From assembly GCA_028691905.1 (NCBI GenBank), contig JAQUYJ010000001.1, positions 1-39,977 on the forward strand: a stretch of DNA of 39,977 nt, read 5' to 3'. The notes beneath the pieces were generated by a model that did not search any database, was not told the origin of the DNA, and was given only the letters and a program-made list of their open reading frames with translations. Positions 136 to 21,634 of the stretch are shown here, piece by piece. The position numbers and the translations under genes were made by a program. This stretch comes from Bacilli bacterium (lineage in GTDB: Bacteria > Bacillota_I > Bacilli_A > ML615J-28 > CAG-698). The first letter of the stretch is position 1. Every line of letters starts with the position of its first letter.

Positions 136-1002
136 ATGAAAAAAAATATATTCAGAGATTTACTGGTAGAAAATCTAGAAGAAGCAACTGTTGTTTTTAT
201 GGGAATACCTTTTGATAAAGCAGTATCGTGTGGGCAGGGTGCTCGTTTTGCTCCCTTAAAATTGCGGGAATTATCAGCCTTTTTACCTCCGGTATCCTAT
301 CAGGGAAAAAAGCTTAACACAAAATTGTTTGATGGTGGTGATATTGAAAACTATCAAGCCAATCAAACCGATTCCAAAGTCACTTTTGCTTTTAAACAAA
401 ACAAATTTTGCTTTTTCGTTGGCGGAGATCACTCCGTTTCCATTGCCATGCAGAAAGCTTTTACTGAAAAAAACAGTGGAAAAAAGGTGGGAATTATTCA
501 TGTTGATGCCCATGCTGATTTGTGCGATATATACGATAACAATCGCTATTCTCATGCAAGTGTGAACAGACGGGCGATTGACAATGGGGTACAGGATGGG
601 GATATTGCTTATATCGGTATTCGGTCATGGGAAAAAGAAGAAGTAGAATATTACCAAAATCATCCTGAAGTTACATTAATTCCGATGCAGGAAATCCACC
701 ACAGTGGGTTACCTACCCAACTGGATAAACTGATTAATCAATTCAGACATCATGATGCAGTTTACCTATCGTTTGATATTGATGCAATTGATCCTGCCTA
801 TGCACCAGGAACAGGAACGCCGGAAGCAGCGGGGATGACTTCCTATCAGGCATTGGAATTGGTTCGTTCTTTACTGCTCCATCTTCCGATTCAAGCAATG
901 GATATCGTTGAAGTGGCTCCCCCCCTGGATCAAAATGATATCACATCCTGGCTTGCACTCAAGATGATGTATGAAGCATTTTCTGCTTTAGAAGAAAAAT
1001 AA
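136..1002 (+). CDS. speB: Arginase-family ureohydrolase, most likely agmatinase
   Basis: 288-aa ORF with RBS agaggtgg upstream. Mn-binding ureohydrolase motifs are present: [34 protein letters not shown]. Substrate (agmatine versus another guanidino compound) cannot be decided from sequence by eye. Confidence 0.8.
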
Positions 1003-10004: not shown

Positions 10005-11960
10005 ATGAAAAAGTTTTTGAGTGTAATGTTAGTATTTGCTCTTGCTTTTGCTGTTGTTGGTTGTAAACCGAAAGAAGTGGATGTTGAAACAACATTAGTT
10101 GTTGGAACAACTACTGAACCAGGCGTTAATATGTTTGGTACTTTCTGGGGAAACAATGCTTCTAATGCAGACGTAAGAGAATTGACTTTTGGTTATGGAA
10201 CTGTGTCATTCACCAAAGAAGGTAAATATGCAGTAGATCCTACATCAGTCAAAAGCCTAGTAGAAACAGAGAATACTGATGGAAGTAAAACATATACAAT
10301 CGAAATTAACACAGGATTGGTTTGGAATGATGGCGAACCAGTTACTGCGAAAGATTATGTGTTTGCTGTTCTATTAAGTATTAATCCGATTTTCTCTAGT
10401 GTAGTTGGAAAAAGCTTATCAACTGATGGAACCATCGTAGGTAGCAAGGATTTCAATGATCCAGATGTGAATACCGATGGTAAGGCTGAACTTCCTGGTT
10501 TGGATTTGATTAATGATTACAAGTTCTCCGTAACTATTGGGGCTGAAAATTTCCCATATTACTACGAATTCTTGTATTATTCTTTCACTCCATATCCACT
10601 ACATGTTTTAGCTCCAGAAGCTGATGTAGTTCAAGGAACAGAAGGCGCAAAAATGAGTGGCGTCTTCACTTCTGCTGTATTAGAAGATACAGTTGATGAT
10701 GGCGAAACCGGATATCGTTATGATATCAGCGTTACTTGCGGACCTTATGATTTATTTGATTTTGATGTTGAAACTTCAACAGCAACATTAAAGAGAAACC
10801 CATTATTTAAGGGCGATTATACTGGACAAGTTCCTGATATCGACAACGTTGTAATTAAATACGTTCCAAACTCTGTATTGTTACAATCCTTGGTTAATGG
10901 TGAAATTGACTTAATTGAATCTGTATCTGGTGGAGCAAACATCCAGGATGGATTATCTGAAGTTGCGTATGGAAAAATTAAATTTACAACATTCCCACGT
11001 AATGGTTACGGATTAATCGCATTCCACTGTGATGAACCTGCAGGTCCTACTTCTCAATTAGAAGTTCGTCAAGCTATTGCTTATTTAATTAATAGAGATT
11101 TATTCTTACAGACTTATACATTAGGATATGGCGTATTACCAAACGGTGAATATGGACTATCTCAATGGATGGTTGCTGCTTCTTCCAATGAAGACGGTGT
11201 TGTAATGGGTAAAAATGCTGATGGAGAACTAGTAGCACTAGAATCTTACAGTTACAATCCAACTAAAGCCGTTCAATTATTAGAAGCTGCTGGCTGGACT
11301 AAGAATGCTACAGGTGGAGCTTATGTTCAAGCTGAAGGCGCTGTTCGTTACAACGCTGATGGCGAAAAACTTGAGATTCCTTGGGCTAACACTCCAGATA
11401 ACCCAGTTTCTGAATTAATTCGTACTCAATTATTGCCAAATGCTGCTGCAGTAGGTATGAGCTTTATTGATACTACTATGGACTTCAATACTATGCTTTA
11501 TACTCACTATTATGGAGCATATGGTGATGGTTATGGATTACCAACCCAAGATGATGATGGCAACTGGTTAGTTCCTGAATACGAAGCTGAAGAAACAGAT
11601 GCTCGTGAATATCATATGGTTAACTTAGGAACTGGATTCAATCCTGGTCTATATGAACCTTACTATGATGTTTCTGTTGAGTACTGGGGCTGGGATGGCG
11701 GAGCCAATATCAGCTATCTATACGATGCAGATTTATTAGAAGCTGCGAAAGATATGAAATTTGCCGCTGATGATGATGAATATCTAGATGCATGGCAAAG
11801 ATATCAATATCGTTTCAATCAATTATTACCAAGCTTACCATTGTATTCCGATATGTATCATGCATTCTTTACAACTAAGCTAAGTGATTATGAAGTTACA
11901 CCTGAATGGACTATGACTTCAGCAATTCTTTATGCTAAGATGGAAGAAGTAGCTGAATAA
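10005..11960 (+). CDS. oppA: ABC transporter substrate-binding lipoprotein, family 5 (Opp/Dpp type)
   Basis: Lipoprotein signal MKKFLSVMLVFALAFAVVGC (lipobox VVGC). 651 aa with SBP_bac_5-like regions. Codon usage looks highly expressed. RBS gggagga. Confidence 0.85.
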   Translation: MKKFLSVMLVFALAFAVVGCKPKEVDVETTLVVGTTTEPGVNMFGTFWGNNASNADVRELTFGYGTVSFTKEGKYAVDPTSVKSLVETENTDGSKTYTIEINTGLVWNDGEPVTAKDYVFAVLLSINPIFSSVVGKSLSTDGTIVGSKDFNDPDVNTDGKAELPGLDLINDYKFSVTIGAENFPYYYEFLYYSFTPYPLHVLAPEADVVQGTEGAKMSGVFTSAVLEDTVDDGETGYRYDISVTCGPYDLFDFDVETSTATLKRNPLFKGDYTGQVPDIDNVVIKYVPNSVLLQSLVNGEIDLIESVSGGANIQDGLSEVAYGKIKFTTFPRNGYGLIAFHCDEPAGPTSQLEVRQAIAYLINRDLFLQTYTLGYGVLPNGEYGLSQWMVAASSNEDGVVMGKNADGELVALESYSYNPTKAVQLLEAAGWTKNATGGAYVQAEGAVRYNADGEKLEIPWANTPDNPVSELIRTQLLPNAAAVGMSFIDTTMDFNTMLYTHYYGAYGDGYGLPTQDDDGNWLVPEYEAEETDAREYHMVNLGTGFNPGLYEPYYDVSVEYWGWDGGANISYLYDADLLEAAKDMKFAADDDEYLDAWQRYQYRFNQLLPSLPLYSDMYHAFFTTKLSDYEVTPEWTMTSAILYAKMEEVAE

Positions 11961-12051: not shown

Positions 12052-13056
12052 ATGTCAAGATATATCATAAAAAGAATTGTATACATATTTTTTGTCGCAA
12101 TATTGATTACTGTTATCTTGTTCTTATTGTATAAATCCATTCCCGGGGGAGATACTGCCCGTGTTTTTGCCTATGTTGATCAAAACTTAAAAAGAACTAA
12201 CCCAGCATTATATGTCATAAAAATGCAAGAAGCTATCGAGGAATTGGGAATCAATAAACCAGATATCGTTCAATACTTTTTGTGGGTGAAAAGTGTCTTA
12301 AAAGGTAATCTTGGATATACATTATATACAAACGAACCTGTACTTCAATATATTAAAGCGCCTTTAGGGAATACAGTAAAATTAAATTTAGTTGTAATGT
12401 TTTTTGTTTTCGCAATAACATTTCCATTAGGTATCAAATCAGCAGTTAAAAAGTATTCAACATTTGATAACAGTGTTCAGGTGTTCACTATTGTTGGGAT
12501 GTCCTTACCAAGTTTCTTCATTGCCTTGATTTCCATTTTAATATTTTCTGCAACGTTAGGATGGCTGGCAAGTAACGGAATGAATTCCGGTATTTTAGCC
12601 CGAAGCAATATGACTGGTTTTGAGCGGCTCTTGGATAGCTTGAAATACATGATAATGCCGGTATTTGTTTTAACGGCATCATCACTGGCTGGAATTACCA
12701 GGTATGTTCGAGGGGCAATGATCGATATTCTTTCCCAGGATTACATCAGAACAGCACGTGCGAAAGGACTAAAAGAAAAAGTAGTCATTTATTCCCATGC
12801 TTTTCGTAATGCAATGATTCCTGTAATCACCATACTGGCCGGTTGGTTTCTTGGTATATTTGGTGGTGCCACCATTACAGAAACAATCTTCGGTTGGAAC
12901 GGAATGGGAAAAGTAATGTTTGATGCATTAATGCAGGGACCGGACTATGCTGTTATTATGGCAATGAACCTGTTTTATACTGTACTTGGTTTAGTTGGTA
13001 ATTTGATACTTGATGTATTGTATACTGTAGTAGATCCAAGGGTTAAGTTGGGGTAG
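12052..13056 (+). CDS. oppB: ABC transporter permease, OppB/DppB type
   Basis: 334 aa, multi-TM, EAA loop IRTARAKGLKEKVVIYSHAFRNA. RBS aaggaga. Confidence 0.9.
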   Translation: MSRYIIKRIVYIFFVAILITVILFLLYKSIPGGDTARVFAYVDQNLKRTNPALYVIKMQEAIEELGINKPDIVQYFLWVKSVLKGNLGYTLYTNEPVLQYIKAPLGNTVKLNLVVMFFVFAITFPLGIKSAVKKYSTFDNSVQVFTIVGMSLPSFFIALISILIFSATLGWLASNGMNSGILARSNMTGFERLLDSLKYMIMPVFVLTASSLAGITRYVRGAMIDILSQDYIRTARAKGLKEKVVIYSHAFRNAMIPVITILAGWFLGIFGGATITETIFGWNGMGKVMFDALMQGPDYAVIMAMNLFYTVLGLVGNLILDVLYTVVDPRVKLG

Positions 13057-13060
13057 AGAT

Positions 13061-15031
13061 ATGAAGAAAAATAACTTTATTGAGAATGTTAGAGATTTTT
13101 TCATTATTATTGGAAGAGCACTTAAAAATGCTTTTGTCCGTGCCTTTTTTGGTACACATAAAGAACTTTCCATGTTGGAAGAAGAAGCAGTAGAAAGTCC
13201 GCTAAAGGGAGCTACTCGGAAATTTTTTAAAAACAAATTAGCCATTATCGGCTTAATTGTGTTTCTCGCAATATTTGCGTTTTGTTTTGTTGGAAGTATT
13301 TTTATTAAGGATAAAGAGTATCGTTATTTAAATATTACACAAAGAAATATCAGCCCGGGCTATCAAATGATGGCTGTTCCCAAGGGCTTGCAGGAAAACG
13401 GAATACTGGATATAGCTGTTGGTTCAAAATACAGTGCCGGTATTGATTTAGACAACAATGTTTATCTGTGGGGACAGGACATTAACAACTTAGTAGAAGA
13501 CTTTCCCCAAGGTCAAGCTGCACCTTCTGATTTAAAAGTTGGAAGAGATGCGATTGCCGGTTTGAAAGCAAAACGTGTCTGGGCCGGTCAAACCCATTTT
13601 ATGTTTGAAAAAATGGACGGAACACTTGAAGGAATCGGAATACGAACAGATATCGTTTCATTTGGATTAACAGCAGTACCAACTGCCGTCTTGTCCGGAG
13701 CTGTATTGGTTAATATAGCACAGCAGATTCAATTGGATGGCGGTGTCCTGGACATGGTTTTATTTAATCAAATAAACCTCGTCATTACCAAAAAGAACCG
13801 CGTGTTTATGTGGGGAAATACGGTTGGAAGAACGACTAATTTTTCTGCAGTCAATGCTTTAAAACCAGTTCAAGCAGGATTTTCGCGCAGTAATATTACG
13901 TTTCTTTATGAAGATGGCACTGTTGGTGTTATCGGTGAAGGAAGTTTGAAAAATACCCTTCCCGCCGGACTGAGTGGCATTGTTCAGATTGTAACTACAG
14001 CGGGAAGTGCATTGGCATTAAAAGCTGATGGGACATTTATTACCTGGGGTGATAATTTGTCCAAGGAATTTGAATATGATGACTCCATCCAGGGCCGTAT
14101 TAAGAAATTATCTAAATCAGCTTTGGGCTCAGATAACTATCAGCATTTTACAGCTGTACTGGATGATGGATCAGTATATTCATGGGGAAGCAATCAATAC
14201 AATGCTTCCACTCCACCTAAAAAATTAGCAGAAGGAACCGAAGCAGCAAATGTATTTTCTGGATATTTCCAAAATTATGTCATTGACGAAGAAGGAAAAT
14301 TGCTGGGTACCTATGGATTAAAAGGACACTTGTTTGGAACAGATGATTATGGTCGGGATTTGTTGGACCGAGTAATGGGTGGCGGAAGAATTTCCTTAAC
14401 AATCGGATTGATTGCTGTCATCATTTCCACAACAATCGGAATTATTATTGGTGGTACTGCCGGATTTTACGGTGGTAGAGTAGATATATTATTAATGCGT
14501 TTTAGTGAAGTGGTTGGATCAATTCCATTCTTGCCGATTGCGATGACTTTCTCGGCAATTTTAAGCAGAACCAATCCTGATATGACAACGACGGATCGAA
14601 TGGTTATGATTATGATTATTCTCGGTGTCTTGAGTTGGACCGGATTGGCTTATCTTATTCGAGCTACCATTTTGTCAGAAAGAGAAAAGGAATTTGTTAC
14701 CGCTGCGAAAGCACTTGGTGTAAAAAACCGAGCAATTATATTCAGACATATTATTCCTAATGTATTAACTATTATTATTATCAGTGCAACTCTTGGTTAT
14801 GCATCTTCCTTATTGACTGAAGCTGGTCTTTCATTCCTGGGATTTGGTGTTCAGTTACCTGCTCCTTCTTGGGGGAACTTATTAACGGGTGCTCAGGAAA
14901 TGACAGTTATTAAAGTCTATTGGTGGCGTTGGGTATTCCCATCTGTCTTATTGTGTCTTGCAACCATAAGTATTAACTTAATCGGTGATGCAATAAGAGA
15001 TGCTGTGGATCCACGTTCCAGTGAAAGATAG
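13061..15031 (+). CDS. oppC: ABC transporter permease, OppC/DppC type, with a large RCC1-like repeat insertion after TM1
   Basis: 656 aa. TM1 is at about residues 59-82. The conserved OppC_N motif LFGTDDYGRDLLDRV is at about 424-438. EAA loop VTAAKALGVKNRAIIFRHIIPN. Residues of about 100-420 are extra and carry seven WG/IG/YG-terminated repeats. Confidence 0.88.
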   Translation: MKKNNFIENVRDFFIIIGRALKNAFVRAFFGTHKELSMLEEEAVESPLKGATRKFFKNKLAIIGLIVFLAIFAFCFVGSIFIKDKEYRYLNITQRNISPGYQMMAVPKGLQENGILDIAVGSKYSAGIDLDNNVYLWGQDINNLVEDFPQGQAAPSDLKVGRDAIAGLKAKRVWAGQTHFMFEKMDGTLEGIGIRTDIVSFGLTAVPTAVLSGAVLVNIAQQIQLDGGVLDMVLFNQINLVITKKNRVFMWGNTVGRTTNFSAVNALKPVQAGFSRSNITFLYEDGTVGVIGEGSLKNTLPAGLSGIVQIVTTAGSALALKADGTFITWGDNLSKEFEYDDSIQGRIKKLSKSALGSDNYQHFTAVLDDGSVYSWGSNQYNASTPPKKLAEGTEAANVFSGYFQNYVIDEEGKLLGTYGLKGHLFGTDDYGRDLLDRVMGGGRISLTIGLIAVIISTTIGIIIGGTAGFYGGRVDILLMRFSEVVGSIPFLPIAMTFSAILSRTNPDMTTTDRMVMIMIILGVLSWTGLAYLIRATILSEREKEFVTAAKALGVKNRAIIFRHIIPNVLTIIIISATLGYASSLLTEAGLSFLGFGVQLPAPSWGNLLTGAQEMTVIKVYWWRWVFPSVLLCLATISINLIGDAIRDAVDPRSSER

Positions 15032-15042
15032 GAGGAAACACG

Positions 15043-16038
15043 ATGGCACTATTAGAAGTTAAAGATCTCCACACTTTCTTTACAACCAAAAGAGGTATTG
15101 TAAAGGCAGTTAACGGAATGACATATGAATTGGAAGAAGGAAAAACATTGGGTATTGTTGGGGAAAGTGGTTCTGGAAAGAGCGTTTCCGCGATGAGTAT
15201 TCTTCGTTTACTGGATGGAAATGGTTATATTGACAGTGGAACTGTCCTTCTGGACGGTGTGGATCTGACAAAAGTTGATGAAGCAGCGCTGCAATATATC
15301 CGTGGCAATAAAATATCAGTCATTTTCCAAGAGCCCATGACCTCTTTAAATCCGGTATTTACTGTAGAAAAGCAAATTGGTGAAGTATTCCAAATTCACC
15401 AAGGAATGACAAAAAAAGAATCCTACGCGAAAAGTGTTGACTTATTGCGTGAAGTAGGGATTCCCAATCCGGAAAAAGTGGCAAAAAACTATCCCCATCA
15501 ATTAAGTGGCGGGATGAGACAACGGGTTATGATTGCGATGGCACTGGCCTGTCGTCCCCGAATTTTAATTGCGGATGAACCTACTACTGCTTTGGATGTA
15601 ACCATCCAAGCTCAGATTTTAAAATTAATGAATGACTTAAAAAAAGAATCCAATATGGCAATTATCTTTATTACTCATGATTTGGGTGTTATAAATGAAA
15701 TGGCTGATGATGTTATCGTTATGTATTGTGGTGAGATTGTAGAAAAGGCATCCGCAAAAGTGATTTTTGCGGAATCATCCGATTACACTCATCCTTATAC
15801 AGAAGGATTGATGACCTCTATTCCACGTTTAAACAAAGGAAAAGAGCGATTGGATGCCATCCCAGGTGCAGTTCCCCATCCACTTGATTTACCGGTAGGA
15901 TGTAAATTTGCACCCCGATGCAAATATGCAACAGCAAAATGCCAGGAAAAAGAACCGGATCTGCTATTGGTAGAAGAAGGACACAGCGTAAGATGTTTCT
16001 ATCCGAAAAAAGGGGTGAGAAGTAATGGCGAAAAGTAA
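15043..16038 (+). CDS. oppD: ABC transporter ATP-binding protein, OppD/DppD type
   Basis: Walker A GESGSGKS, signature LSGGMRQR, Walker [14 protein letters not shown]-terminal Opp-type Cys motif [18 protein letters not shown] aggagga. Confidence 0.93.
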
Positions 16039-18175
16039 AACACTGACCAATACTCCTTTAATTAAAATTGTAGGAGTAAAAAAGCACTTTCCACTGAAAA
16101 AAACGCGCTTGTTTCAACGAGAAGTTTTGACTGTAAAGGCAAATGATGGAATTGATTTAACTATAAACAAGGGAGAAACACTTGGTTTAGTAGGTGAAAG
16201 TGGTTGTGGGAAATCAACACTTGGCCGCGTATTACTGCAACTTTATCCTGTTACATCGGGGAAAATCATTTATTATGGTTATAATGTTGATCAATATGCA
16301 CCGAAATATTTTACGAGAGAAATAAGACGATTGCATTTGTCTAAGGAAATGCGGGAAAGACTGGAAGCAAAAATTCCCCTTCTTGAAGAAAAAATTAAAG
16401 AGCTGCAAGCCGATGAAGTTGAAAAGGCAAAACGAAATGAATTAGCTGCGAAAATAAAAGAATTGGAAAAAGCAAATCAGAATTTATGGGACGAATGCCA
16501 TGGTAAGCATCAGGCTTTCATCGTAAGTGAAGATATTCATGCTATCCGTCGTTTTCCAAAGTTGGATTCATATATTGCCAAGGCTGAAGCTAAAATTACG
16601 AAATTACAACAAAAAATTGACGATTATGAGGGTACGCGGGAAAGTGCAAAACAGTATCGTAATCCGAAAGCAGAAGCGGAAGTTGTAGAATTAAAAAAAC
16701 AAATCGAAGTTGCTGAATTAAGCTGCATTGCTGATTTAAATAAAAAATTAGCTATCGCAGAACGTAAAGCAAATTATAAATTATATGAATTGGATTTGAA
16801 TATTTTAAATACTCAGAATAAAATCAACTTAATCAAAAACGAAATGATGATGCACGCGCAGCGAATTAAATCCAGTTTAGATAAACCGATTGAATTAAGT
16901 TCTGATGTTCTGAAAAGCTTGGTTGAATATAAAGAAAAATATCATGCAAATAAGCAGTTAATCAAGCAATATCAAGCAGTAATCGACTTTAAAAAACAAA
17001 AAGATGAAATTCAAAAGATTCAAAACAGAATTGATAAAATTTTGGATAATGCTGCAAACGCAACCGGCGGTTATGTATTAAGCAATCAATCCTTAAAAGT
17101 ATCACAAAGCTTGTTTCAACGTGTTGCAAACTTACGTAAAATTGTCGATGAAGAAGAGAAAATTCAAATTTGCAAAGTAGCAAAGTTTAGAACTGAAAAA
17201 GAGCTGGAAGCAAAAAAGGATAAACTAACCAATTTGCAAATTAACAAATTGCAGAAAAAAATTGTGAAATACGAAGAAAACCTGGCTTTATCTGACCAAA
17301 AAATTCAAGAATTTAACCGTTTGGTTGACGAAGCCAATGTTGAATTAAGAAAACTAAAAGAAGAAGTCAAACAAAATGAATTATTTGATGAATTGGAAGC
17401 AAAAAGAGAAAAAGGAATTGATTTATCCCGTTTAACAAACGAGGAAATGCGTATTTTACGTAAACATCTCCAATTAATTTTCCAGGATCCTTATTCCTCA
17501 TTGAATCCAAGAATGACAGTTGGTCAGATTATTTATGAAGGTATAAGAGCGCATCATTTGGATGAACTGACTTATGACGACAAACAAGAACAAATTATCA
17601 AAGTAATGGAGAAATGCGGATTGGCACCATATATGCTTCATCGTTATCCTCATCAGTTTTCTGGTGGACAACGTCAACGAATCGGTATCGCTCGTGCCCT
17701 TGCTGTAAATCCGACTTTTGTCGTCTGCGATGAAGCTGTCAGTGCCCTTGACGTATCTATTCAATCACAGATAATCAACTTGCTCGAAGATTTAAGAGAC
17801 AATGAAAATCTAACCTACTTGTTTATTTCTCACGATTTAAGTGTTATTAAACATATTAGTGACCGAATCGGCGTTATGTATTTAGGTAATATGGTAGAAT
17901 TGGGTGATTCTGATGCAGTTTACGAAAGACCACTTCACCCTTATACCAAAGCTTTAATTTCATCTATTCCAACTACAGATCAGGAGCAAAGGAAACGAAT
18001 TTTATTAGAAGGAGATATTCCTTCCAATGTATTCCCACCTAGTGGATGTAAATTCAGAACCAGATGTCCATTGGCCCGTAAAGCATGTGCAGAAAAAGTA
18101 CCTGAGTTTAGAGAAGTAGAACCGGGAAGATTCGTTGCCTGTCATTTCTATGAAGAAACAGAAAATCTTAGATAG
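16025..18175 (+). CDS. oppF: ABC transporter ATP-binding protein, OppF/DppF type, interrupted by a coiled-coil insertion of about 375 aa
   Basis: 716 aa, with a 14-nt overlap with oppD. Walker A GESGCGKST (about residues 57-65). Q-loop LIFQDPYSSLNPR begins only at about residue 484. Signature FSGGQRQR, Walker B FVVCDEAVSALD, C-terminal GCKFRTRCPLARKAC. Residues of about 91-466 are Lys/Glu/Leu/Ile/Gln-rich and heptad-like. Confidence 0.9.
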   Translation: MAKSKTLTNTPLIKIVGVKKHFPLKKTRLFQREVLTVKANDGIDLTINKGETLGLVGESGCGKSTLGRVLLQLYPVTSGKIIYYGYNVDQYAPKYFTREIRRLHLSKEMRERLEAKIPLLEEKIKELQADEVEKAKRNELAAKIKELEKANQNLWDECHGKHQAFIVSEDIHAIRRFPKLDSYIAKAEAKITKLQQKIDDYEGTRESAKQYRNPKAEAEVVELKKQIEVAELSCIADLNKKLAIAERKANYKLYELDLNILNTQNKINLIKNEMMMHAQRIKSSLDKPIELSSDVLKSLVEYKEKYHANKQLIKQYQAVIDFKKQKDEIQKIQNRIDKILDNAANATGGYVLSNQSLKVSQSLFQRVANLRKIVDEEEKIQICKVAKFRTEKELEAKKDKLTNLQINKLQKKIVKYEENLALSDQKIQEFNRLVDEANVELRKLKEEVKQNELFDELEAKREKGIDLSRLTNEEMRILRKHLQLIFQDPYSSLNPRMTVGQIIYEGIRAHHLDELTYDDKQEQIIKVMEKCGLAPYMLHRYPHQFSGGQRQRIGIARALAVNPTFVVCDEAVSALDVSIQSQIINLLEDLRDNENLTYLFISHDLSVIKHISDRIGVMYLGNMVELGDSDAVYERPLHPYTKALISSIPTTDQEQRKRILLEGDIPSNVFPPSGCKFRTRCPLARKACAEKVPEFREVEPGRFVACHFYEETENLR

Positions 18176-18356
18176 GTTAAATGTTACTCCGGAAAAAGAG
18201 CGATTAGCAAAAGAAAATCTAAAAAATAATCCGTTGGAAAAGAATGATATGAAAGCGATAATGATTGCTGCATTTCTGGCTTTTGTTTTACCTACAATAC
18301 TTGTTCTGGGAGTAATAGCATTTATTATTTGGTTAATTATCATTATGATTGCATAA
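18150..18356 (+). CDS. Small hypothetical membrane protein (single C-terminal TM)
   Basis: The ORF fills the gap between the oppF stop (18175) and the operon terminator (18361). It has a charged N-terminal part and the hydrophobic stretch AIMIAAFLAFVLPTILVLGVIAFIIWLIIIMIA. No strong RBS is visible, and the start is uncertain (18135, 18150 or 18249). Confidence 0.4.
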   Translation: MKKQKILDRLNVTPEKERLAKENLKNNPLEKNDMKAIMIAAFLAFVLPTILVLGVIAFIIWLIIIMIA

Positions 18357-21118: not shown

Positions 21119-21634
21119 ATGAATAAACAGAATGTATATGTAGCTTTTGATGGGAAAAATGATATTAAAGAATTTGCCAATTTTGAAGAATGGGAAAAAA
21201 CTGAAAATTATCCCTTTCATTTCATTAACGGAATGGAAGTTGCCCTTCGATTGGATAAAGAAAGCGATGAAGTGTTAAAGAAAAAATTGGGAGAGTTAAT
21301 CGATTCCTGTGCAATTTTTGTTGTATTGGTTACAAAAACAACAAAAAGTTTCCGTCGTTTTGTAAAGTGGCAAGTCGAATATGCCATTGAAAAGGGAATG
21401 CCAATCATCGTTTCCAATACGAATTTGATTCGTTCGGTCGACTATGACCGCTGCCCGATGAAATTAAAAAAAGCTTTATCCTTGCATATCGCCAATAATC
21501 AGGAAATCGTATCCTATGCTCTGCTGAATTGGCCTGCCAGTCATCAAGATCACCTTCAGAATGAGCGAATACAAACATTTCGATATGAAAAGGAACTATA
21601 TGATTTTTATCATATAAAAACATCACCATTTTAA
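21119..21634 (+). CDS. TIR-like domain protein (DUF1863 / MTH538 / ThsB-like family)
   Basis: 171 aa, strong RBS aaggaga, 10 nt after the nadK stop. The pattern VYVAFDGKND...(acidic/aromatic region)...SCAIFVVLVTKTTKSFRRFVKWQVEYAIEKGMPIIV fits the flavodoxin-like TIR fold of DUF1863 proteins. Assigned by eye only. Confidence 0.6.
   Translation: MNKQNVYVAFDGKNDIKEFANFEEWEKTENYPFHFINGMEVALRLDKESDEVLKKKLGELIDSCAIFVVLVTKTTKSFRRFVKWQVEYAIEKGMPIIVSNTNLIRSVDYDRCPMKLKKALSLHIANNQEIVSYALLNWPASHQDHLQNERIQTFRYEKELYDFYHIKTSPF

Follow-up and report, generated by a model that had tools for sequence, protein, structure and literature searches.

Why should the ATPase of a peptide-type importer carry several hundred additional residues inside its nucleotide-binding domain (NBD)? 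This question is raised by the oppF gene in the 39,977-nucleotide stretch of DNA analysed here (the window), which is taken from a Bacilli bacterium (assembly GCA_028691905.1, contig JAQUYJ010000001.1, positions 1 to 39,977). The window contains an operon in the order oppA-B-C-D-F, in which a Pfam scan identified an SBP_bac_5 protein, two BPD_transp_1 permeases and two ATP-binding cassette (ABC) ATPases; transporters with an SBP_bac_5 component are also known to take up sugars and metals. An original prediction, made from the letters of the DNA, had proposed that OppF is split between Walker A and the Q-loop by a coiled-coil insertion of about 375 residues. We report here that the insertion is a genuine feature of the gene, that it is predicted to be a folded, all-helical accessory domain and that, on profile evidence, it appears to have arisen by internal duplication and to define a widespread OppF subfamily. 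We are highly confident of the entity as so described, a helical insert domain that marks a subfamily; its mechanism is a more tentative matter, to which we return below.

The insertion in OppF and its boundaries

As judged by its motifs, the window OppF is a complete Opp/Dpp-type ABC ATPase. Walker A (GESGCGKST, residues 57–65), the Q-loop (IFQDP, 485–489, its glutamine being Gln487), the signature (FSGGQRQR, 545–552), Walker B (FVVCDEAVSALD, 565–576, with DE at 569–570) and the H-loop (ISHDL, 601–605, with His603) were all identified, and nearly all of these catalytic motifs were invariant across 18 homologues. Residues 624–688 matched the oligo_HPY family (PF08352, E = 5.9e-20), and Cys675, Cys681, Cys688 and Cys706 were all invariant in the homologues; the four cysteines of this domain serve as 4Fe-4S ligands in DppD and DppF (PMC12136057). 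The Pfam model ABC_tran (PF00005) matched OppF as two separate stretches, and the match of the NCBIfam OppF and DppF models was likewise broken in two by the insert, with scores below the equivalog cut-offs (374.6 versus 540 for OppF NF011659 and 311.9 versus 660 for DppF NF043071). OppD gave one uninterrupted ABC_tran match over a protein of 331 residues with all catalytic motifs intact, so the expectation that an unmodified OppD would make the NBD pair asymmetric was borne out. The oppF reading frame is intact under translation table 11 and TGA is thus read as a stop codon, from which it follows that the organism is not a code-4 mycoplasma.

The boundaries of the insertion were defined by phmmer comparison with proteins in the PDB. 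Residues 13–87 of the window OppF aligned to residues 350–424 of Mycobacterium tuberculosis Rv1281c and residues 464–656 to residues 422–611 of the same protein, while residue 466 corresponded to residue 87 of Escherichia coli OppF. Since the flanks align to contiguous parts of Rv1281c, the insertion comprises residues 88–463, which agrees to within three residues with the span predicted originally (positions 16295–17422). The alternative that this region is a normal NBD segment is contradicted by the alignment to canonical proteins, which reveals an insertion instead. The canonical hairpin of the form xIxxxG-xDLxxL is divided exactly, with KIIYYGY standing before the insert and GIDLSRL after it; by this alignment the insertion site is the beta-hairpin that follows Walker A, upstream of the Q-loop.

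Three motifs punctuate the insert family-wide. They are an N-junction of the form YYG.x(L/V)(D/E)(D/E)..P.Y....(I/V)..L, a GG motif of the form LLDIT.I.GG(F/L), represented in the window by ILDNAANATGGYVL (residues 339–352), and a C-junction of the form (F/Y)..LE...G(I/L)(D/N)L. The composition of the insert differs from that of the core, being rich in K (15.2 %), E (12.2 %), L (10.9 %), A (8.5 %), I (8.0 %) and Q (6.6 %) and poor in G (1.1 %) and P, whereas the OppF core contains 6.2 % K, 6.8 % E and 6.8 % G. A crude heptad score gave 0.60 for the insert, compared with 0.45 ± 0.03 for shuffled versions of it (about 5 standard deviations lower) and 0.26 for the core, in line with the K/E/Q/L/I/A-rich, heptad-like character noticed at the outset. 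Cysteines are present at residues 158, 234 and 383, and no CxxC motif was found. The insert matched no Pfam or NCBIfam family. A word-indexed search with the insert alone returned no match, since low-complexity candidates saturated its word filter. When 1.84 billion representatives were searched exhaustively with phmmer, three matches were obtained, all from the insert's own clade.

An assembly or sequencing artefact, or the in-frame fusion of an unrelated gene fragment, would also place foreign residues inside an ATPase, and some short metagenome contigs of the insert-bearing family are indeed probable chimeras (see below). The identical 716-residue protein was however found in a public collection, under the name 'MAG: Bacilli bacterium' (MAG, metagenome-assembled genome), and on at least 15 independently assembled contigs of up to ~100 kb from several Sequence Read Archive runs, in the same operon each time. 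A further 17 homologues of 714–720 residues share 46–61 % identity with it over their full length, and inserts of 374–377 residues are found in the long-insert homologues. In a scan of 185,579 species genomes (GTDB) the long insert was present in nine species, its carriers including 'Tenericutes bacterium ADurb.BinA124', 'Bacillales bacterium UBA2253' and 'Bacilli bacterium' MAGs. The GC content of the region is slightly reduced and its A-skew strong, which is compatible with K/E-rich coding and gives no sign of foreign DNA. The insertion is thus a genuine feature and a trait of its lineage, as had been supposed, and the probability of an artefact is negligible. Long antisense open reading frames (ORFs) lie opposite oppF both in the window (18005–18343, minus strand) and in the related locus L014 (7908–8684, minus strand); these are probably a by-product of the purine-rich K/E codons of the sense strand and not genes.

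Across the long-insert clade, identity is 25–35 % in the insert and 80–85 % in the core, and neither a frameshift nor a stop codon was found in any homologue. For the single pair of loci with unsaturated synonymous divergence (L006 and L014), the insert had a ratio of non-synonymous to synonymous substitution rates (dN/dS) of 0.137 and the core one of 0.040, with an insert dN about five times that of the core. The insert is therefore faster-evolving than the core and yet clearly constrained, under purifying selection. These values bear on the idea of a neutral passenger, in which a surface loop would have lengthened without harm and without acquiring any function. The solvent-exposed position of the turn, the fivefold excess in dN and the low-complexity composition would all fit such a passenger, but a dN/dS of 0.14, open frames throughout, a conserved length, a fold that is predicted with confidence from just 15 sequences (see below) and junction and GG motifs that are conserved across phyla would not, and we regard the idea as improbable.

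Origin and distribution of the insert and its co-occurring parts

Two relatives carry a shorter insert of 166 residues at the same site as in the window OppF. These are P0020, a 506-residue protein from a sister lineage with the same tryptophanyl-tRNA synthetase neighbour as in the window, and P0018, an ORF in which OppD and OppF are fused; both share the N-junction, the GG motif and the C-junction. Such short-insert relatives were invisible to single-sequence search and were recovered by means of a junction profile and hhalign. In hhalign comparisons the short insert aligned to window residues 333–463 (97 % probability, E = 9e-11) and its N-terminal part to residues 97–182. When the two halves of the long insert were aligned to each other, residues ~100–206 matched residues ~296–395 with a score of 45.0, compared with 12.5–14.6 for reversed controls and 11.7 ± 2.3 (maximum 20.1) for sixty column shuffles. 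In addition, the sequence LDKPIELS (residues 285–292) in the middle of the insert resembles the EKGIDLS of the C-junction. Because the halves align far above the controls and LDKPIELS echoes the C-junction, the 376-residue insert is best explained, on this profile evidence, by internal duplication of an ancestral unit of ~130–170 residues. A first copy of the G-loop is apparent at AFIV (164–167), where residue 163 is G in the clade consensus and Q in the window protein.

A profile of the N-junction retrieved many N-terminal OppF fragments, some of them named Oscillospiraceae, Sphaerochaetaceae or Sphaerochaeta. All 80 of the 80 fragments long enough to judge lacked a Q-loop within 60 residues of YYG, and several extended as far as the GG motif, so that each of these fragments is read as carrying the insert. 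The short form (~130–170 residues) is frequently met in the OppF of MAGs from Clostridia and Sphaerochaeta and in that of human-gut contigs, its members including P0020, the P0018/L067 type, L026, L099 and the Oscillospiraceae and Sphaerochaeta MAG fragments. Taken together, these alignments define by its insert a widespread OppF subfamily that spans several phyla and for which our literature search retrieved no description. The window OppF belongs to it by its junctions and GG motif, by the propeller-bearing OppC of its operon and by the small membrane protein encoded downstream.

Several observations on individual members may be recorded here. P0018 is an 805-residue ORF (L005, 41–2458) fusing OppD to a short-insert OppF, whereas P0123 and L067 encode that OppF separately; the ORF may be either a real fusion or the product of a frameshift or read-through. 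The P0020 lineage (L016/L017, 3519–11194) has a second opp operon, which encodes an OppA of 1037 residues with Big_2/Ig domains, an OppC of 444 residues with no propeller match and an OppF of 395 residues, ~55 more than the canonical length. Five contigs bearing the Tenericutes-like operon (L006, L007, L011, L012 and L013) come from MAGs labelled Bacteroidales, Omnitrophota or Staphylococcaceae, labels that are probably binning or taxonomy errors.

The original prediction had called for a survey of whether long OppF and propeller-bearing OppC occur together, and in nearly every locus examined they do. An OppC with a propeller, as encoded in the window, accompanied the OppF insert in all seven loci examined by hand, among them L010, L013, L014, L015, L018 (Sphaerochaetaceae) and L019. 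Downstream of the insert-bearing oppF, a gene for a small membrane protein was present in all loci with downstream DNA, the distant P0018 lineage included. The window form of this protein (68 residues) has a charged N-terminal segment followed by a hydrophobic tail, is predicted to be single-pass and carries the motif (P)LEK(G/N)D..A..IAAF as PLEKND.KA..IAAF. It matched no Pfam or NCBIfam family, DUF6442 (E = 0.12) falling short of significance.

The small protein alone was then used as a metagenome probe and retrieved 80 loci, mostly from the human gut. An OppF-type gene ended less than 700 nucleotides upstream of it in 70 of the 74 loci with upstream DNA. Spacing from Walker A to the Q-loop, which is ~42 residues in canonical proteins, was 211 residues in 35 loci, 421 in two, and 174 and 189 in one each. 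A propeller OppC was found in 28 of the 32 metagenome loci with at least 5.2 kb of upstream sequence. This co-occurrence is the basis on which insert, propeller OppC and small membrane protein are taken to be inherited together. Our literature search found nothing linking RCC1 to OppC and nothing on an OppF insert of this kind. Six OppF ORFs with short spacing (L059, L068–L070, L081 and L084) were considered as natural insert-less alleles and rejected. The contigs that carry them are short and of low coverage. In their C-terminal halves these ORFs are identical to the insert-bearing gut type and in their N-terminal halves they are unrelated to it; they are probably chimeras produced by assembly, with the join at conserved ABC motifs.

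The coordinates of all features are collected in Table 1. Elsewhere in the window, a gene of 171 residues at 21119–21634 (plus strand) has a ThsB_TIR (PF08937) match in the precomputed annotation of identical contigs. It is flanked by the genes for NAD kinase and ClpP and encodes a solitary TIR protein of the Thoeris type.

Table 1 Features of the opp operon in the window and of the OppF insert; nucleotide positions are those of the window, residues those of full-length OppF unless another protein is named
Feature	Position	Strand	Description
oppA	10005..11960	+	651 residues; SBP_bac_5 lipoprotein-type binding protein, lipoprotein-type signal
oppB	12052..13056	+	334 residues
oppC	13061..15031	+	656 residues; RCC1-like propeller at ~residues 95–425, between N-terminal transmembrane helix and permease core
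oppD	15043..16038	+	331 residues, canonical, without insert
oppF	16025..18175	+	716 residues; Opp/Dpp-type ABC ATPase with insertion; overlaps oppD by 14 nucleotides
OppF NBD, N-terminal part	16025..16285	+	residues 1–87; A-loop F22, Walker A 57–65, strand KIIYYGY 80–86
OppF insertion	16286..17413	+	residues 88–463, ~376 residues, predicted all-helical, without family or fold match
N-junction motif	16286..16333	+	residues 88–103, VDQYAPKYFTREIRRL; Y95 and L103 invariant
Repeat copy 1	16313..16876	+	~residues 97–284; holds first G-loop copy
Repeat copy 2	16877..17413	+	~residues 285–463; begins LDKPIELS
GG motif	17039..17089	+	residues 339–355, ILDNAANATGGYVLSNQ; G348 and L352 invariant
C-junction	17378..17428	+	residues 452–468, ELFDELEAKREKGIDLS; NBD re-entry 23 residues before Q-loop Gln487
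OppF NBD, C-terminal part	17414..18175	+	Q-loop, signature, Walker B, H-loop, oligo_HPY domain with four invariant Cys
Small membrane protein gene	18150..18356	+	68 residues; overlaps oppF stop by 26 nucleotides; candidate sixth subunit
Insert helices 1–5	residues 103–129, 131–162, 177–203, 214–229, 232–249		AlphaFold2 model
Insert helices 6–10	residues 251–283, 293–320, 323–352, 356–396, 403–448		AlphaFold2 model

Predicted fold and possible role of the insert

Modelling of the insert alone with AlphaFold2, from an alignment of 15 sequences, gave an all-helical structure with a mean pLDDT (predicted local distance difference test) of 90.9 and a pTM (predicted template modelling score) of 0.64. 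In a model of full-length OppF the insert retained a pLDDT of ~90 and essentially the same helix boundaries, while the NBD itself was modelled badly, the 18 aligned sequences being too much alike in that region. Ten helices of 16–46 residues were modelled, the longest unbroken helix having 46. DSSP analysis of the model detected a two-residue ladder at the base, between residues 86–87 and 464–465, and isolated bridges at I166 and L285. These models predict that the insert is a folded, all-helical accessory domain. In Foldseek searches the full-length model matched NBDs only, and the insert model matched nothing in PDB or BFVD at E ≤ 0.001, with a best TM-score of 0.23.

Four constraints were placed on the topology: the ends of the insert meet at the base (86–87/464–465), the loops 163–170 and 284–292 touch (I166–L285), the helix lengths pair, and the short insert corresponds to helices 103–129, 323–352, 356–396 and 403–448. 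The simplest closing path would take helix 103–162 outward for ~9 nm, segments 177–229 and 232–283 back and then out again, and helix 293–352 home antiparallel to 103–162, leaving 356–396 and 403–448 as a proximal hairpin. The insert would on this path be a rod of ~9 nm made of two stacked four-helix bundles, the proximal one being the ancestral unit and the distal one the duplicated unit, with the two antiparallel 60-residue helices 103–162 and 293–352 threading both. The variable helices would make up the rod, and around its foot on the NBD hairpin the N-junction, the GG motif and the C-junction would provide a conserved collar. Two bundles lying side by side would also meet these constraints; a single hairpin of 25 nm would not.

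The fold bears directly on the principle put forward originally, that of a long coiled coil emerging from the head as in SMC, Rad50 or UvrA. Spelled out as a rival explanation, a long antiparallel coiled coil with a glycine hinge would project from the head and dimerise or tether transporters. The heptad-like periodicity is of that kind, the Pfam SMC_N model gave a match to the window OppF, albeit one of 21.4 bits where the gathering cut-off is 40, and the weak, non-significant Foldseek matches of the insert were mostly to generic long coiled-coil proteins (Rad50, the MukB elbow, Smc arm fragments and viral SMC/SbcC). Set against these are the fold search itself, with nothing significant and no TM-score above 0.23, the position of the insert before the Q-loop, its ten short helices and the absence of a hinge and of a CxxC hook. 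A single hairpin would moreover fail to close on the base and would leave the I166–L285 bridge unexplained. The proposed hinge fares no better: a glycine motif is present where NAANATGGY (343–350) had been singled out as a break, but it lies inside helix 323–352 and the break falls at 353–355. It is also the most conserved element of the insert family, with G348 present in the inserts of 130–170 residues too and a duplicated copy at 163, and is thus better described as a motif of the base than as an apex. We consider an SMC-like arm very improbable.

How, then, might the insert act? We tentatively propose an OppF-specific docking or allosteric module, although our confidence in this mechanism falls short of even; for entity and mechanism taken together we would put the chances as equal either way. 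The insert would bind a partner, the likeliest being the stretch of the co-translated small membrane protein that is N-terminal and presumably cytoplasmic. The partner-bound state would be relayed along the strand running into the Q-loop, which lies 23 residues further on, and would tune how ATP is bound or hydrolysed by the subunit that in Dpp is the first to load nucleotide. Comparable modes of action are those of the helix-loop-helix in ABCE1 and of the regulatory domains at the C termini of MalK and MetN. OppF alone is the modified ATPase, and both OppD and OppF keep their catalytic motifs. In the resting state of E. coli Dpp, DppF holds a single nucleotide (PMC12136057). We favour a docking or allosteric module because of this role of DppF and of the positional precedent set by ABCE1.

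Several points weigh against this proposal. The link between the insert and the small protein consists of adjacency, overlap and co-occurrence of their genes. The distal helices diverge fast, at 23–39 % identity as against 80–85 % in the core, and the length of the insert varies from 130 to 376 residues among lineages, which would fit a generic spacer too. The topology and the projection relative to the membrane were drawn from helix lengths, two DSSP bridges and homology, and the repeat alignment spans just ~100 of the ~188 residues in each copy.

Some of these points lead to an architectural brace or spacer, in which the rod would stabilise the assembly, as the C-terminal Fe-S domains do in Dpp and Opp, or set spacing or clustering at the inner face of the membrane, with no allostery. 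A conserved base with a distal part that varies in sequence and length is what such a brace would display, and the Fe-S domains of Dpp are required for stability of that complex (PMC12136057). A detergent-insoluble core fraction of Mycoplasma pneumoniae was found to contain OppF, a result that the authors ascribe to large metabolic complexes (PMC4669176). A pure spacer, however, would not obviously need a length kept within 2 residues per clade, nor an invariant collar motif beside the strands of the nucleotide site. We judge this explanation unlikely.

A broader view than the docking or allosteric module would see here an undescribed, six-component class of Opp-type importer, in which a trans-membrane accessory axis, made up of the OppF rod, the small protein and the extracytoplasmic propeller, gates the ATPase. 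Events outside the cell, at the propeller or OppA, or else a cytoplasmic signal, would be relayed through the insert to the nucleotide site of OppF, and the length of the rod would be tuned per lineage through duplication. Gut Clostridia, Sphaerochaeta and Tenericutes-like Bacilli would commonly possess this class. We offer this view as a speculation that is rather unlikely to hold in full.

Beyond what was read from the DNA at the outset, the present analysis adds the duplication origin, an undescribed multi-phylum Opp subfamily and its two signature parts, of which the small membrane protein had previously gone unnoticed. The variant appears to be abundant among bacteria of the gut and of digesters. 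Should the insert prove to dock a partner or to gate the use of ATP, it would represent a new mode of regulation for a type I ABC importer and a natural asymmetric NBD pair with a control element on one subunit only. Its duplication, from ~170 to 376 residues, would also provide a ready length series for experiments.

Comparison with known systems

Opp and Dpp importers are textbook systems for which cryo-electron microscopy structures are now available. E. coli OppBCDF (8z21) and DppBCDF (8z1v) and M. tuberculosis OppABCD (8j5q) served as canonical comparators for OppF/DppF. The window shares with canonical Opp/Dpp the ABC motifs, the oligo_HPY domain with its four cysteines and the oppABCDF operon, and in the parts that can be aligned its OppF core shows 46–53 % identity to the DppF and OppF of E. 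coli. It differs in the 376 extra residues, the propeller in OppC and the additional small membrane protein; no helical domain in an NBD, no OppC propeller and no sixth small subunit were found when the Opp/Dpp cryo-electron microscopy structures and literature were searched.

Accessory cytoplasmic regulatory domains are known on the NBDs of other importers, such as those of MalK and ModC, the C2 domain of MetN and the CBS domains of OpuA. Any likeness to the window insert would be one of function, by analogy only. Those domains are C-terminal, have a beta-rich or CBS fold and are carried by both NBDs, unlike the insert.

In SMC, Rad50 and SbcC, as in the window OppF, an ABC head is interrupted by helical sequence. 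The coiled-coil arms of SMC and Rad50 leave the head after the Q-loop and are hundreds of residues long, ending in a hinge or a Zn hook. The window insert, in contrast, precedes Gln487 and has neither hinge nor Zn hook.

Unusually long Opp ATPases are also found among the mollicutes, to which the original prediction had linked the insert. The NCBIfam model of M. mycoides OppF (NF043078, MMSYN1_0168) has 649 positions, of which ~344 are extra and fall after the Walker A strand and before the signature region, and that of OppD (NF043079, MMSYN1_0167) has 561, with ~220 extra in the corresponding interval. The ~344 extra positions map between residues 82 and 518 of the window OppF, a placement by model mapping only, and the window protein scored 294.8 bits against NF043078, for which the cut-off is 800; its score against NF043079 likewise fell far short of the cut-off. 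In M. mycoides OppD is expanded too, whereas the window OppD is not. The NF043079 model aligned continuously to residues 250–668 of the window OppF, through the second half of the insert. From this alignment mycoplasma OppD may be expected to have an insert of its own in the corresponding hairpin, with compositional similarity as an alternative explanation. A literature search on long OppF, MPN218/MG080 and MMSYN1_0167/0168 retrieved nothing relevant. The long M. mycoides models bear out the mollicute link in part, and the insert may also account for the great length of mollicute Opp ATPases; the trait is nevertheless not specific to mollicutes, since homologous shorter inserts are found in Oscillospiraceae, Sphaerochaetaceae and many human-gut contigs.

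A positional parallel is offered by ABCE1, whose first NBD contains a helix-loop-helix upstream of the Q-loop; this element serves to dock ABCE1 on the ribosome, and the next strand couples it to the Q-loop (PMC7196836). In both proteins a helical insertion precedes the Q-loop in one NBD of two. The two insertions are non-homologous and differ in size (~30 versus 376 residues), and ABCE1 is a soluble ribosome-recycling factor.

With the short-insert subfamily, finally, the window has in common the insertion site, the three motifs, the propeller OppC, the normal OppD and the small membrane protein. What sets the window clade apart is ~200 further residues in the insert, acquired, as the repeat alignment indicates, by internal duplication.

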